This document shows, piece by piece, positions 3,051 to 37,122 of a DNA stretch of 64,000 bases. How positions within the stretch are numbered: position 1 is the first letter of the stretch; every line of letters starts with the position of its first letter. The DNA comes from a virus (taxonomy: Duplodnaviria > Caudoviricetes), in the IMG/VR virus record IMGVR_UViG_3300027255_000165; one strand, 5' to 3'. A model generated the notes under the pieces. The model worked only from the letters and a program-made list of their open reading frames with translations, searched no databases and was not told where the DNA came from. The position numbers and the translations under genes are program-made.

Positions 3051-3287
3051 TTATTTCCAATCGGAACCCTGCAAAATAGCCTGCATTTCGCTAGCAGCAT
3101 AAGGTCCTTCTTTTGTTGTTAGAGCTGCAATGCTAGATGGAACATCATCTCTTTCCCACTTTACATAAATTTTAGAACCGTCTTTAGATCTAACTAAAGA
3201 TTCAGCCGATTGGTCCATTACGTCCATAAAGTTAATAGCATCAACCTCATTAGCGTTTAAAATCATATACTTTAATTCTCTTTCCAT
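3051..3287 (-). CDS. small acidic tail-fibre-associated hypothetical protein
   Basis: 78 aa ORF tightly packed between LamG genes; a type commonly seen beside LamG fibre genes in aquatic phages. Confidence 0.6.
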   Translation of the reverse strand: MERELKYMILNANEVDAINFMDVMDQSAESLVRSKDGSKIYVKWERDDVPSSIAALTTKEGPYAASEMQAILQGSDWK

Positions 3288-32755: not shown

Positions 32756-33070
32756 TTAGCTGGCTTTGGCCACTTTGTCAGCTGGTTGAGCGATGAAATC
32801 CTCAACGTTAAGCTCTTGATTGGTTGTAAGACCCCATTGTAGAACAAACCAGCTCATCTCGTTTTCAGCTCCCTTCTTGGTCATGCTAAGCTCTTTACGC
32901 AAGAACTCAACACCCCATTGAATGAATTCTTTTTCGGCTTCAGGCGTAGTCTTGTAACGAAGGTACCACATCGGGTCACTAATTACGTCTTCATACGTTT
33001 TACCGAAAGGAAGAAGCTGACGATCAACAAGCTGTTTGAAGACTCGAGTTTGTTTGTCTCTTCGATTCAT
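32756..33070 (-). CDS. hypothetical protein
   Basis: 104 aa ORF. Confidence 0.7.
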   Translation of the reverse strand: MNRRDKQTRVFKQLVDRQLLPFGKTYEDVISDPMWYLRYKTTPEAEKEFIQWGVEFLRKELSMTKKGAENEMSWFVLQWGLTTNQELNVEDFIAQPADKVAKAS

Positions 33071-33071
33071 G

Positions 33072-33278
33072 TTAGTTTTGAATTAATTCAGTTTGAAAGA
33101 GCACATCTTGATCTTGAAAATAAATGAACGTATCAAGTGCCATTGATACCATTAGGGTTCCAGGCGAGTGCTCTTCAAAATATTCAATTTTAATACCTGA
33201 ACCCATATACGAACTGTCTGCCAATAGACCGTTGAAAACCAACAAGTCTTTTTGTGAAATGTAGATATAGACTTTCAT
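33072..33278 (-). CDS. hypothetical protein
   Basis: 68 aa ORF; TAATG coupling with the upstream small gene. Confidence 0.65.
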   Translation of the reverse strand: MKVYIYISQKDLLVFNGLLADSSYMGSGIKIEYFEEHSPGTLMVSMALDTFIYFQDQDVLFQTELIQN

Positions 33279-33412
33279 TAGTTATATATTTCGTCGTGGC
33301 AGCTTGAACACAATTGTCCAGCACCCTCAACATAATGATAACGAAAATCGATGTGAGTTGACTCCTCGTATTGAGTTTCAACGCTACAGCTTACACATTT
33401 TTCTTTTGCCAT
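33278..33412 (-). CDS. small CxxC..CxxC zinc-binding protein, 44 aa (not in ORF track)
   Basis: MAKEKCVSCSVETQYEESTHIDFRYHYVEGAGQLCSSCHDEIYN*; stop overlaps the next ATG (TAATG). Confidence 0.75.
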   Translation of the reverse strand: MAKEKCVSCSVETQYEESTHIDFRYHYVEGAGQLCSSCHDEIYN

Positions 33413-33433
33413 TTTGAATTGAATTAAGATTCG

Positions 33434-33507
33434 TGACCCGTACGAGATTCGAACTCGTGATCTTCTCCGTGAAAGGGAGATGTCCTAAACCGCTAGACGA
33501 ACGGGCC
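33434..33507 (-). tRNA. trnE: tRNA-Glu(TTC)
   Basis: GGCCCGT/ACGGGTC acceptor, CTTTCAC anticodon loop, GTTCGAATC T-loop; no encoded CCA. Confidence 0.95.
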
Positions 33508-33513
33508 GTTTAG

Positions 33514-33544
33514 TATTTATACAGTCAAATCTAAAATTGTTTCA
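33514..33544 (-). promoter_or_regulatory. putative promoter TGAAAC-N17-TATAAATA
   Basis: Exact spacing repeated at 35208-35238, 35385-35415 and 37142-37171. Confidence 0.65.
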
Positions 33545-33802
33545 CCACTTACCAAGTGGACAAGAAGAATTTACAGATAGAGCTTTAGCTCTTAGGTGAC
33601 AACCACATCCTCGAACAATCTTACCTGTTTCCGCATGAGTTCCTGTTTTGGTTGGATCGCAAATTACACCGTTACGAATCTTGCAATCATGACAAATTGA
33701 AAGACGCTGCTCTGTTCTTTCTTTCAGGGCAGGTGCTAGGTTATCGTAATCTTGGAAGAGCAATCTTCCCCAACCTTCAATGATTTCTTTGATCTTACTC
33801 AT
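33542..33802 (-). CDS. small Cys-rich hypothetical protein
   Basis: CHDC..CDP..GCGC.L.AK...CPLGKW. Confidence 0.7.
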   Translation of the reverse strand: MSKIKEIIEGWGRLLFQDYDNLAPALKERTEQRLSICHDCKIRNGVICDPTKTGTHAETGKIVRGCGCHLRAKALSVNSSCPLGKW

Positions 33803-33816
33803 ATTAAAAAGAAATG

Positions 33817-33842
33817 GACGGTTGAACCGAAGCTCAACCGTC
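33817..33842 (-). terminator. intrinsic terminator with cUUCGg loop
   Basis: - strand GACGGTTGAGC-TTCG-GTTCAACCGTC-CATTTCTTTTT. Confidence 0.8.
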
Positions 33843-33894
33843 TAATTTCGCCACATTAGCTCCACTTTGTTTTGCCTGAGAACAAAGAAACTCA

Positions 33895-33971
33895 TGGTGG
33901 AGGTAGAGGGATTCGAACCCACGACCCTCTGCGTGCAAGGCAGATGCTCTAGCCAACTGAGCTATACCCCC
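33895..33971 (-). tRNA. trnA: tRNA-Ala(TGC)
   Basis: GGGGGTA/TACCTCC acceptor with G3:U70, CTTGCAC loop, encoded CCA. Confidence 0.95.
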
Positions 33972-33975
33972 ATGA

Positions 33976-34275
33976 AAAATAGTAATAATGGGATTCCTGA
34001 CTACCCATACACCTTGGATCTACCCCTTTTCACCCATGGTCCAACAGAGTAGCTAGTTCTGTTGTAATGACCAGCTGGATTGCATACCAGCACCCGTTGC
34101 AAAGATCAGATAGCGTATCTTGGCGGGACCTCATTGACTACCAGGTTGCGCATTCTACCCTGTAGTTTGAGTGGTTTTATCTCATAGATCTGTGTGATCC
34201 AACATTCCTGCTTTTCAGCAGTTCAGCCAGTACCTTAAGGACTCTTAACCCCTTGTTCGGTCACATTACTATTTT
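33976..34275 (-). ncRNA. candidate ~300-nt structured ncRNA of unknown class
   Basis: 11-bp closing inverted repeat (33976-33986/34265-34275), several internal helices including CTGCT-GAAA-AGCAG, no convincing ORF, sits between two tRNAs. Confidence 0.55.
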
Positions 34276-34276
34276 G

Positions 34277-34349
34277 AGCGAAAGACCGGGTTCGAACCGG
34301 CGACCCTGACCTTGGCAAGGTCATGCTCTACCAACTGAGCTACTTTCGC
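34277..34349 (-). tRNA. trnG: tRNA-Gly(GCC)
   Basis: GCGAAAG/CTTTCGC acceptor, CTTGCCAA loop, GGTTCGAACC; no encoded CCA. Confidence 0.95.
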
Positions 34350-34356
34350 AATTTTT

Positions 34357-34552
34357 TGGAGCTTCACCTTTTTAGCGCGCTTGCAGCATCAAGGTCCCAA
34401 CCTAAGCAGTCCGTCGACTGTGCTCTTAGGGTTTTACGTTTATCTCTCCATTTTCTTGGTGGCGAGTAATTTGCGGTTACTCATTTCTACTTCTGAATGT
34501 GCTGATTAGGTTAACATCACAGCATGAATTTCATTTTCGTCTAATTACCACC
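34357..34552 (-). ncRNA. two candidate ~95-nt structured elements (34457-34552; 34357-34449), each closed by a terminal stem ending ..CCA
   Basis: GGTGGT/GCCACC-A with adjacent GAGTAA/TTACTC hairpin; TGGAG/CTCCA with CCTAAG/CTTAGG and CAGTC-GACG-GACTG. Confidence 0.4.
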
Positions 34553-34553
34553 T

Positions 34554-34629
34554 TGGAGCCTCCTGTCGGACTCGAACCAACGACCTACTGATTACAAATC
34601 AGTGGCTCTACCAACTGAGCTAAGGAGGC
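34554..34629 (-). tRNA. trnT: tRNA-Thr(TGT)
   Basis: GCCTCCT/AGGAGGC acceptor, TTTGTAA loop, encoded CCA. Confidence 0.95.
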
Positions 34630-34688
34630 ATTAGGGGACGGTATCGAGTTGAGTGTTAGTCCCGTCCCCTAGGCTAGACTCAGTGGGA

Positions 34689-34853
34689 TTACTCAGCTAC
34701 TACTTCGGTAGCTTCTTCCGCAACTACTTCAGTGGTAGCTTCCTCAGAAACAACTTCCTCAACGGTAGTAGTTTCCTCAGTTACAACCTCTTCAGTGTTG
34801 TTACAAGCTACAGCGGCGAATGCCATTGCAGCTAGAAAAAGAGATTTTTTCAT
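34689..34853 (-). CDS. small acidic lipoprotein, 54 aa (not in ORF track)
   Basis: MKKSLFLAAMAFAAVA-C-NNTEEVVTEETTTVEEVVSEEATTEVVAEEATEVVAE*; signal peptide II with lipobox Cys17. Confidence 0.8.
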   Translation of the reverse strand: MKKSLFLAAMAFAAVACNNTEEVVTEETTTVEEVVSEEATTEVVAEEATEVVAE

Positions 34854-34914
34854 GTTACTCTTGTTTAAAGGTTAATAAAGAGAATCAATTCTCAATAGAA
34901 TTGCAATCTCTTCG

Positions 34915-34999
34915 CGGAGGCGGTAGGATTCGAACCTACGGACCTGTTACAGTCAACAGTTTTCAAGACTGCCGCGATCGACCACTCTGCCACGCCTCC
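34915..34999 (-). tRNA. trnS: tRNA-Ser(TGA)
   Basis: GGAGGCG/CGCCTCC acceptor, CTTGAAA loop, long variable arm. Confidence 0.95.
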
Positions 35000-35053
35000 C
35001 TTTATTAGAACTAATATGTCAAAGAACAGTGTTTTAGTACACGTCTGGGTTTG

Positions 35054-35135
35054 TGCGGATGAAAGGAATCGAACCTTCACTTCGTAAGAAACCAGATCCT
35101 AAGTCTGGCGCGTCTACCAATTTCGCCACATCCGC
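35054..35135 (-). tRNA. trnL: tRNA-Leu(TAG)
   Basis: GCGGATG/CATCCGC acceptor, CTTAGGA loop, variable arm. Confidence 0.95.
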
Positions 35136-35207
35136 ATTAAAAAGGGAGTCTGTTTCCAGGGTCTCCCGTCTTTGTGTAACCAAAAACAAAGAACTATTTT
35201 GTTGTGT

Positions 35208-35238
35208 TATTTATACCTGATGGTATGTTATAGTTTCA
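35208..35238 (-). promoter_or_regulatory. putative promoter TGAAAC-N17-TATAAATA
   Basis: Upstream of tRNA-Leu. Confidence 0.65.
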
Positions 35239-35258
35239 TCGGGTTTAAACTTTTTTTG

Positions 35259-35332
35259 TGAACCCAACAGGAGTCGAACCTGTAACCTACACATTAGAAG
35301 TGTGTTGCTCTATCCAATTGAGCTATGGGTCC
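35259..35332 (-). tRNA. trnR: tRNA-Arg(TCT)
   Basis: GGACCCA/TGGGTTC acceptor, CTTCTAA loop. Confidence 0.95.
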
Positions 35333-35384
35333 AAAGAGTTAATTTTTGTCTTTGATTACAGTATGTTAAAGAACGATATTCAGT

Positions 35385-35415
35385 TATTTATACTCTAACT
35401 TGAGAGTTTGTTTCA
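35385..35415 (-). promoter_or_regulatory. putative promoter TTGAAAC-N17-TATAAATA
   Basis: Upstream of tRNA-Arg. Confidence 0.65.
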
Positions 35416-35416
35416 A

Positions 35417-35659
35417 TCACTTGGCCGAAGCTTCTTTGATTTCGTTAATCTTTTGAAACTCGTACTTACCCTTGATAAATTCATTTAGAGAGCGACCCTG
35501 TGAGGAGGCTGAAGCGAAGAATACGTAGTCTTCGACTGACACGTTTTCATAAACGTAAGTTGCGTGATCAAAGTGAACTGTTAGGACCTTGTGCTCGTAG
35601 TTGTAAGAACTAGATTTAACAGTTGATGAGTTGTATTGATTTGTTTGTGAAGTTATCAT
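35417..35659 (-). CDS. KTSC domain protein
   Basis: SS.+.S..Y......L.V.F....Y.Y.NV....Y..F..A.S.G...N..IK..Y pattern; start reassigned to MITSQ. Confidence 0.85.
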   Translation of the reverse strand: MITSQTNQYNSSTVKSSSYNYEHKVLTVHFDHATYVYENVSVEDYVFFASASSQGRSLNEFIKGKYEFQKINEIKEASAK

Positions 35660-35670
35660 TATAAATGAGT

Positions 35671-37122
35671 TTAGATTTCCCAAATTGTTTTTCTATTATT
35701 GGTATTGTGACATAAAAGAAATTGCCCTCTAAATGTAGAATACTTTTCAGTTGTTTTTAAACGATTGATAAAGTCTAGGTCTTCTCCCATCGTCAATGAA
35801 TTCCTCCAACGATGAGGAACTTCTTTATGATGAACGATTTGCCAAGTTCCATTTTGGCCCATTGCTTTAGTAGATGCAATCTTTTGATTAATTACAATTA
35901 ATTGACATGCGTTTCTTAATTCTTCATATCCTTTAACATTATTATCCATTCCAAAATATTGAAGCATTAGCTTATTTGGATTTTCAATTAAAGGAAGCAT
36001 GTAATACATGTCAAATAAAACAGTAGTTCCATTTGGCGCTGTCGTAATTGCATTACTAATTAAAGATAAATGATTTTCTAAAATGATGTCGTCTGTGTCT
36101 AGGTAACATATCCAATTATATCTCGCTACTGACCTTCCTACTTCTCTTAGTGTTCCAGGCCAAGTTGAATCTGATTTTTCACATTTAATCAACCTAATTA
36201 AAGGATCTTGTTTCCATCTTTCTTCGTAGATCTGATTAGTTCTTTCACAGCCATCACTGATGATGATTAATTCCTTTTGTTTGTAAATCTGTGCTTTAAA
36301 TGATTCAACAGCTCTGATAAACTTTTCAACGGGATTTGATCTACTGCCAGCGTATTCACCAAGAAAAGATGGCATTACAACTGAAATGCCTACCTTTTGT
36401 TCTTTAAGAACAGGATTATCAGCCCTTCTATCCCATCCGGAATGTGTAACATATCCATCTTCATCATTTTCAGAAAGGCTCCAAACTGAAAATCCTCTAT
36501 CTCTATAATATGCGTCGACTAGGTGTTCTCTGTTAAGGCCTGAGTAACCTTCACTTAAAAGTTTCCAATCACTTAATCTTTTCAATCCAGGATTCCAACT
36601 AAAACCCATATAATTTTTAATTATCATATCGGTTCCATCGTCATTAGCTCCTTTGACAGTAAAACTGACGGGCTTTACTATTCTTATAGATACCCCTTCT
36701 TCTACCGAGTGAATTTGCGAATCAATACTATTAAGAATCTTGTCTGACTTTGGTCTAATCCAAACTTGTAAAATCTTTGGATATTTTTCTAAAACTTTTA
36801 TTGATTTTTCAATAAAACCCGATCGATTAAAATCCCAATCTTCTTCACAATGGAATACGTATTCTGTTTCCACCATTGAATACGCTTTATCTATGGATCC
36901 TGTCTGTCCTAACTTCTCGTAATTGAAAATGAATTCGAGCTTATTATCGTATTTTTGATTTAAGACTTTGCATTGTTCGAAAACTTTTAAATCAGCAGAA
37001 TCTTCAGTAATCAAATATCTGTCGATTGGATATGTATTAAACTTAAAGAAAGACTCTAGGGTCTTTTCTAAAAGATCAACTCTTCCACATGATGTTAAAA
37101 CAAATGTTACTCCCTTGTTCAT
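35671..37122 (-). CDS. two-domain glycosyltransferase (GT-A + GT2)
   Basis: N-terminal LTSCGR.DLLEKTL.SF..FHCEEDW..NPGL; C-terminal ISVVMPSFL..ELIIISDGC..YLDTDD. Confidence 0.85.
   Translation of the reverse strand: MNKGVTFVLTSCGRVDLLEKTLESFFKFNTYPIDRYLITEDSADLKVFEQCKVLNQKYDNKLEFIFNYEKLGQTGSIDKAYSMVETEYVFHCEEDWDFNRSGFIEKSIKVLEKYPKILQVWIRPKSDKILNSIDSQIHSVEEGVSIRIVKPVSFTVKGANDDGTDMIIKNYMGFSWNPGLKRLSDWKLLSEGYSGLNREHLVDAYYRDRGFSVWSLSENDEDGYVTHSGWDRRADNPVLKEQKVGISVVMPSFLGEYAGSRSNPVEKFIRAVESFKAQIYKQKELIIISDGCERTNQIYEERWKQDPLIRLIKCEKSDSTWPGTLREVGRSVARYNWICYLDTDDIILENHLSLISNAITTAPNGTTVLFDMYYMLPLIENPNKLMLQYFGMDNNVKGYEELRNACQLIVINQKIASTKAMGQNGTWQIVHHKEVPHRWRNSLTMGEDLDFINRLKTTEKYSTFRGQFLLCHNTNNRKTIWEI

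Follow-up and report, generated by a model that had tools for sequence, protein, structure and literature searches.

A conserved structured RNA within the tRNA array of a large marine phage is a probable enlarged relative of manA

A real, conserved and structured RNA is encoded on the minus strand between two tRNA genes of a large uncultivated marine phage. It was located in a window of 64,000 nucleotides, i.e., the whole stretch of viral DNA analysed here, in which the element comprises 304 bases (Table 1). In its fold, the closing stem P1 encloses hairpins of the manA type at the 5′ and 3′ ends and, between them, a GNRA hairpin followed by a new central domain. Judged from sequence and model comparisons, the element appears to be an enlarged, uncatalogued relative of manA, being neither a member of that family by the Rfam test nor, apparently, a new class. 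We consider that it is probably a free-standing, stable non-coding RNA, excised by tRNA processing and self-assembling via two palindromic loops.

The window contains T4-type portal, major capsid, prohead protease, terminase and sheath genes, and the DNA runs containing the stretch are labelled marine metagenome. The portal shared 57% identity with its counterpart in a 462-kb uncultured phage record, and portals of records of 540–735 kb were its more remote relatives. Seven tRNA genes form an array at 33433–35332, every one of them on the minus strand; therefore, the element RNA is the reverse complement of the window strand. Conserved U–G pairs as well as tRNA orientation were the basis for this strand assignment. 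In transcript order, the array reads tRNA-Arg, Leu, Ser, Thr, Gly, the element, tRNA-Ala, a terminator-like hairpin, an 86-codon open reading frame (ORF) and tRNA-Glu. The Gly-then-Ala order and the GAAA loop given in an initial annotation of this DNA were correct as minus-strand readings, and the element does lie flush with both tRNAs, where tRNA processing would release the RNA as that annotation proposed. The nhmmer profile of the homologues covers 33973–34280, and the 64-kb window contains a single copy of the element. No tRNA, tmRNA or tRNA-like domain was detected inside the element using ARAGORN and the Rfam tRNA and tmRNA models.

Table 1. Positions of the element, its flanking tRNA genes and its helices in the window.
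Feature	Position	Strand	Description
Whole element, ~304 nt	33972–34275	minus	Occupies all bases between tRNA-Gly and tRNA-Ala
tRNA-Gly (GCC)	34276–34349	minus	Directly upstream of the element; 3′ end at 34276/34277; CCA not encoded
tRNA-Ala (UGC)	33895–33971	minus	Directly downstream of the element
P1, 5′ strand of closing stem	34265–34275	minus	11 perfect pairs with 33976–33986
P1, 3′ strand	33976–33986	minus	tRNA-Ala 4 bases away (33972–33975 between)
P2, 5′ hairpin	34232–34261	minus	3-bp base helix, GAAYAA/UAA internal loop, 7-bp upper helix; common to manA
P3 hairpin and outer helix	34199–34230	minus	GNRA (GAAA) tetraloop at 34213–34216
P4, long-range helix	34185–34190 with 34017–34022	minus	85% paired
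P5, long-range helix	34172–34176 with 34032–34036	minus	Closes five-way junction; 92% paired, 3/5 pairs compensatory
H6, three-part bulged hairpin	34130–34171	minus	Helices covary; apical loop has GCGC (34148–34151)
H7 hairpin	34093–34127	minus	CCCG/CGGG base; conserved interior including UGAUCU
H8 hairpin	34074–34091	minus	8-nt loop; 99% paired, 4/5 pairs compensatory
H9, two-part hairpin	34037–34073	minus	Apical loop palindrome UAGCUA (34050–34055); 97% and 89% paired
H10, 3′ hairpin	33988–34008	minus	Conserved 11-nt loop, hallmark common to manA; 99.7% paired

The terminator-like hairpin (33842–33817, minus strand) consists of an 11-bp GC-rich stem followed by a T-run and lies after tRNA-Ala and before the 86-codon ORF (33542–33802, PHROG 13558); it may be the end of the element's transcription unit. 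In a terminator and promoter scan, the counts were not above those of shuffled sequences. Two other long gaps occur in the tRNA array, at 34350–34553 (204 nt) and 34630–34913 (284 nt), and neither matched Rfam. The latter contains a 54-codon ORF (34689–34853, minus strand), and both gaps may hold further small RNAs or genes.

Homologues were collected by five pattern scans of a viral contig collection followed by nhmmer profile searches, which yielded 84 hits. Fifty-nine of these were distinct full-length homologues of 308–361 nt (~310 nt) on uncultivated phage contigs (alignment A2), and they formed four subgroups. The window's own subgroup comprises the window and five other distinct sequences. 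The second subgroup carries a conserved leader where the upstream tRNA would be, and the third is small. The fourth is large and more distant, derives mostly from contigs of 180–290 kb and includes the 735-kb phage record LR756501. A blastn search with the element as query in 50,697 phage records returned just four short matches; the match in LR756501 was the 3′ end of a genuine distant homologue (L001). The pattern for the window's subgroup had 0 hits in 185,579 prokaryote genomes versus 32 viral contigs, a comparison that applies at the sensitivity of an exact pattern only. Of 58 hits to an internal-hairpin pattern, most proved on alignment to be glycine-rich coding DNA and were set aside.

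We then compared pairing across the homologues with two controls, i.e., shuffled alignments and partners slid out of register. In the 59 sequences, 91.6% of the cells in the shared helices were paired, compared with 65.0% in shuffles (0/500 reached the observed value) and 39–48% for slid partners. The covariation score of these helices was 0.741 versus 0.24 for shuffles and 0.12–0.19 for slid partners, and changes on both sides occurred at 43 of the 49 pairs. The highly structured RNA proposed in the initial annotation is thus borne out by the homologue covariation check that it had suggested. The complete window-type structure, evaluated in 27 sequences, was paired in 83.8% of cells versus 66% in shuffles and 36–50% for slid partners; 68 of its 86 pairs showed compensatory changes, and every helix except the H7 interior was supported. 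RNAalifold, run on the same number of sequences, predicted 43 pairs, with compensatory changes at 33.

The folding energy of the single sequence was unremarkable relative to shuffles (z = −1.2 for the minus strand and −2.0 for the plus strand). The case rests on the comparison of homologues because single-sequence stability is not exceptional. These modest z values, together with ORFs of 32–35 codons that overlap the region, are what could be cited for a functionless spacer or a small protein-coding gene with helices arising by chance. However, covariation was far above both controls, the indels among homologues were not multiples of three, the changes occurred pairwise in stems, and the element is conserved across phage groups with entirely different flanks. 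As far as computation goes, these observations refute a spacer or coding gene, which we regard as extremely improbable.

The individual helices were supported to different degrees. The perfect 11-bp inverted repeat that had been noticed exactly between the two tRNAs corresponds to P1, and at each of its 11 pairs both sides have changed among the homologues. A sequence alignment of P1 is not possible; the stem is maintained by complementarity and not by sequence. The duplex energy of the two ends of the same RNA was −6.6 kcal/mol, compared with −2.0 kcal/mol for ends taken from different homologues (59 sequences), and in 39 of the 59 cases an RNA's own partner end was equalled by fewer than 10% of the foreign ones. 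In P2, 97–99% and 92–96% of cells were paired in the two helices, and compensatory changes were found at 9/10 pairs. The loop of P3 was GNRA in nearly all 59 sequences; its inner helix was 94% paired with compensatory changes at 4/5 pairs, and its outer helix was 70% paired with changes on both sides at all 5 pairs. The long-range helix P4 showed compensatory changes at all 6 pairs (alignment A1). P4 and P5 frame a second internal loop of the GAAYAA/UAA type with the strands opposite to the copy in P2; in the distant subgroup, this loop has GAAUAA opposite UAA.

The five-way junction, closed by P4 and P5, bears H6, H7, H8 and H9. Pairing at the inner two base pairs of H7 was 100%, and double changes there numbered 39 and 18; all 11 pairs of H9 were compensatory. 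An interior helix of H7 (H7b; 34117–34121 with 34102–34106) is conserved in sequence and poorly paired in homologues, and it is uninformative on covariation. The loops of H8 and H10 are of one type. The duplicated internal-loop module and the like loops of H8 and H10 therefore give the RNA a partly duplicated appearance.

All the local helices read from the single sequence in the initial annotation recurred in this structure. The GNRA hairpin (34208–34221) and the bulged hairpin (34130–34171) were present with covariation support, and the CCCG/CGGG, GCTGG/CCAGC (34074–34091), CAACAGA/TCTGTTG and ATGGG/CCCAT pairings all covaried in homologues. Two other proposals were not sustained. The long-range pairing TTGGATC/GATCCAA and the alternative pairing with GGTCATTAC (GTAATG/CATTAC) were paired in 48–54% of cells, i.e., the background of the slid controls, and the former is excluded because the conserved P4 occupies its site. 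The pairing UGACC/GGUCA was also rejected: it was 65–81% paired, but compensatory changes were nearly absent, and it is incompatible with H9a, for which 97% pairing and many double changes were observed.

The initial annotation did not recognise the element and pointed to an Infernal search against Rfam. At the curated Rfam cut-offs, tRNAs alone were detected; a permissive search, however, returned one specific match. This sole match was to manA (RF01745), on the minus strand at 33978–34285. It scored 25.5 bits, under half of the gathering cut-off of 55.2 bits, placing the element outside the family by the membership test. The E-value was 7e-4 for a 2.8-kb search region and 8e-5 for the element by itself. 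The match covers the whole model and needs a 137-nt insertion at low posterior probability. The closing stem aligned well, as did the GNRA hairpin and both terminal hairpins, that at the 5′ end including its conserved internal loop and that at the 3′ end including its 11-nt loop. P2 aligned to manA model positions 25–60 (posterior probability 0.9–1.0) and H10 to positions 160–182 with high posterior probability. Eight homologues, drawn from three of the four subgroups, matched manA at 24–34 bits, always below the cut-off, and a canonical cyanophage manA scored 84.3 bits in the same run. The novelty claimed earlier was thus overstated because a specific manA match below the cut-off was obtained for the element and for every homologue tested. 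Conversely, a profile of the long form matched canonical manA collinearly at the two ends only (profile positions 14–52 and 265–303).

Features of manA were present at both ends of the element. P2 corresponds to the manA 5′ hairpin that bears the UGAC-GAAUAA/UAAG-GU internal loop. H10 corresponds to the manA 3′ hairpin with its loop of 11 nt, after which comes the closing-stem 3′ strand, here that of P1. The manA central junction, in which three hairpins in a 6-bp stem are followed by a bulged hairpin, was not matched, and the GNRA hairpin was the only part of it that could be aligned. Covariation supports an architecture other than the manA centre, namely P4/P5 with H6–H9. In summary of the likenesses, the element and manA share the closing stem, the GAAYAA/UAA(G) 5′ hairpin, the GNRA hairpin and a 3′ hairpin loop of the form UAnnCAGnAAU; both are of phage origin and from marine samples, and tRNAs adjoin some sequences of Weinberg's original manA alignment. 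In contrast, the element is ~305 nt long versus ~190 nt for manA, and its middle is occupied by a new five-way-junction domain, which has no manA counterpart and repeats the internal-loop module. It lies within tRNA arrays; in comparison, a single tRNA was found across 16 canonical manA loci. The element has two palindromic apical loops; a comparable variable palindromic loop was not seen in 13 canonical cyanophage manA copies, and the kissing loops reported for manA join different loops and are not homotypic. We found no description in the literature of the ~305-nt form in tRNA arrays, and it is absent from Rfam 15.

When manA was first reported, from marine phages and Photobacterium, it was classed as a candidate riboswitch located in 5′ UTRs (Weinberg et al. 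2010, PMC2864571). On this precedent, the element could be a cis-acting regulator, i.e., a riboswitch or leader, of the sequence downstream, and its complex junctions could form a ligand pocket. However, the position ahead of a protein-coding gene on which the 'Cis-reg' class of manA is based was absent; the element is flush between tRNA genes, and the feature downstream is a tRNA 4 nt away and not an ORF. No terminator or ribosome-binding site overlaps its 3′ part, and the sole terminator-like site follows tRNA-Ala. In addition, no regulated gene is conserved because the flanking tRNAs differ between homologues. The location of the element inside tRNA operons argues against a riboswitch and for a free processed RNA, and we consider cis-regulation very unlikely.

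The flanking tRNAs observed among the homologues were Gly/Ala, Thr/Ser, Thr/Gly, Gly/Asn and Asn/Ile. tRNAs on the strand of the element were present at 49 of the 59 loci; in total, 352 tRNAs were on the same strand and 1 was on the opposite strand. The window and four of its five subgroup relatives have the element flush between two tRNAs, and the contig of the fifth ends before the downstream side. In the second subgroup, tRNA-Arg or tRNA-Thr lies 2–3 nt downstream in 8/8. In the distant subgroup, the nearest tRNA lies between 47 nt and more than 1 kb away, with many copies at 50–1000 nt, and 10/59 loci had no tRNA in the DNA fetched. Release by tRNA enzymes is therefore not universal.

Metatranscriptome contigs of close relatives provided a weak hint that the element is expressed. 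Six RNA libraries contained about one-fifth of the words sampled from the 2-kb stretch around the element, and four of them were examined, all as contigs. In three libraries from different studies, relatives with 90–95% identity covered 33989–34304; the contigs over the element were short, and several ended in adapter sequence. Word depth was 207–237 on the element contigs versus 4–15 on contigs of the flanking ORF and spacer, a depth that is not a measure of expression. One contig extends 29 nt into tRNA-Gly, and a 1594-nt contig from the fourth library spans the array with several tRNAs; contigs reaching into tRNAs could represent precursor RNA or contaminating DNA. Some runs leave parts of the array without cover (e.g., 34405–34538), which is not evidence of anything. 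Because contigs reveal neither transcript ends nor strand nor abundance, and because some DNA may have been carried over, this is a weak hint of expression only.

Two apical loops of the central domain were self-complementary. At the tip of H6, the aligned tetramer was self-complementary in 59/59 sequences, represented by seven different words, and it ranked at the top of 234 four-column windows, for which the mean fraction was 0.13. Three of the seven words are self-complementary only via G–U pairs; therefore, the constraint acts on RNA and not on DNA. The loop hexamer of H9 was palindromic in 46/59 sequences and its central tetramer was self-complementary in 54/59, with three main words that differ by double substitutions. 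A hairpin does not need a palindromic loop, whereas loop–loop pairing of two copies does. The self-complementarity of the two loops thus suggests homotypic kissing contacts between copies of the RNA, a prediction drawn from the aligned sequences. With two palindromic loops per RNA, chains, rings or cages would be expected rather than dimers.

The loop words differed by lineage. The window's subgroup mostly had GCGC with UAGCUA and the second subgroup mostly GCGU with UGAUCA; in the distant subgroup, GGCC, GUAC or GGCU predominated, most often with UAAUUA. Such lineage-differing pairs of palindromes could make assembly lineage-specific.

Retroviral dimer-initiation-site hairpins offer a precedent for homotypic contacts, as a palindromic loop word drives the formation of homodimers by loop–loop pairing and the palindromes differ between strains. 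They are an unrelated molecule in an unrelated setting, and the element differs from them in having two such loops per RNA. Phage T4 RNAs C and D (species 1 and 2) are stable RNAs of ~120–140 nt from the T4 tRNA cluster, co-transcribed with the phage tRNAs and cut out by tRNA-processing enzymes. Like the element, they are small stable RNAs among phage tRNAs, and they are shorter; they are not known to have self-complementary loops. Among RNAs closer to the element in kinship, manA RNAs of <200 nt form decamers and a 60-subunit cage built from pentamers, according to a cryo-EM preprint of July 2026 (bioRxiv 10.64898/2026.07.01.735769). These oligomers are held together by kissing loops, with a GNRA–receptor contact in one variant (10.64898/2026.07.01.735769). 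GOLLD and ROOL are phage-linked RNAs that occur near tRNAs and form RNA cages (PMC2864571, PMC5737381, 10.1101/2024.12.08.627333). They resemble the element as ornate phage non-coding RNAs, often near tRNA genes, and as multimeric RNA-only cages of the kind proposed for it; they differ in being two to three times longer, and we claim no kinship. The Rfam models of GOLLD and ROOL gave no match on 33000–35800, even at E up to 10, consistent with the initial view that the element is neither of them.

We postulate the following sequence of events for the self-assembling RNA that we favour. The element would be transcribed as part of the tRNA array, to judge by its position. Cleavage by RNase P at the 5′ end of tRNA-Ala would generate the 3′ end of the element, and 3′-end processing of the CCA-less tRNA-Gly would free its 5′ side. 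Copies of the released RNA would then bind each other via two homotypic kissing loops, that of H6 (GCGC) and that of H9 (UAGCUA), and the invariant GNRA loop may supply an additional contact. The outcome would be a defined RNA-only oligomer like those reported for manA, ROOL and GOLLD.

A stable processed RNA could also act as a monomer, serving as a sponge or decoy that targets a host nuclease, a defence enzyme modifying or cleaving tRNA, or some other protein; the palindromic loops would then be sites of protein or tertiary contacts and not RNA–RNA interfaces. Embedding in a tRNA array would fit a role in tRNA biology, one conserved loop type in both H8 and H10 would be expected of a repeated protein or tertiary-contact site, and oligomers of the element are a prediction from sequence. 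However, a monomer leaves unexplained why the self-complementarity of two loops is kept via double substitutions and words that pair only through G–U, and the nearest known family, manA, assembles into oligomers. We therefore judge a purely monomeric role to be unlikely.

A more far-reaching version of self-assembly is also conceivable, and we advance it as a tentative and somewhat doubtful proposal. In this version, the ~305-nt RNA released from the tRNA operon would build a closed shell or lattice in the infected cell via its lineage-specific palindromes and the GNRA loop, with the palindromes serving as an assembly code and the structure as a cargo compartment. If so, the tRNA operons of large phages would carry the subunit of an RNA-only nanostructure that is released by RNase P and tRNA 3′-end enzymes. 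The lineage palindromes would keep the particles of co-infecting phages apart, and the RNA compartment could hold or shield cargo, e.g., the phage's own tRNAs.

The manA core, to which the element seems related, would exist also in a larger and widespread form that is absent from Rfam and resides in phage tRNA operons, not in mRNA leaders. The covarying palindromic loops provide a concrete prediction of how subunits join that can be tested by mutation, and the natural variants are material for cryo-EM and RNA nanostructure design. With the element alongside GOLLD, ROOL and T4 RNAs C and D, phage tRNA arrays may be viewed as a nursery of ornate RNAs.

Several minor observations were made in the neighbourhood of the element. 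ARAGORN called a phage-encoded tmRNA beside the element in three homologous loci (L180:3966–4342, L184:5027–5402 and L177:278–663); in L180 and L184, the tmRNA call begins at the 3′ end of the element on the same strand, in the place of the tRNA in other homologues. The arrays of two members of the distant subgroup, L097 (at 3180–3252) and L186, include a tRNA with the anticodon CUA (amber suppressor; labelled Pyl by ARAGORN), located 926 nt downstream of the element in L186, which hints at stop-codon reassignment in those phages. Finally, the 11-base motif GTTCTTTRACA occurs twice on the minus strand within the array of the window (35364–35374 and 35017–35027; 0.18 expected by chance), and in the second homologue subgroup (L003, L044, L163 and relatives) it lies directly upstream of the closing stem and extends into the 5′ strand of that stem. 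We take this motif to resemble the boxA antitermination signal of rRNA operons.
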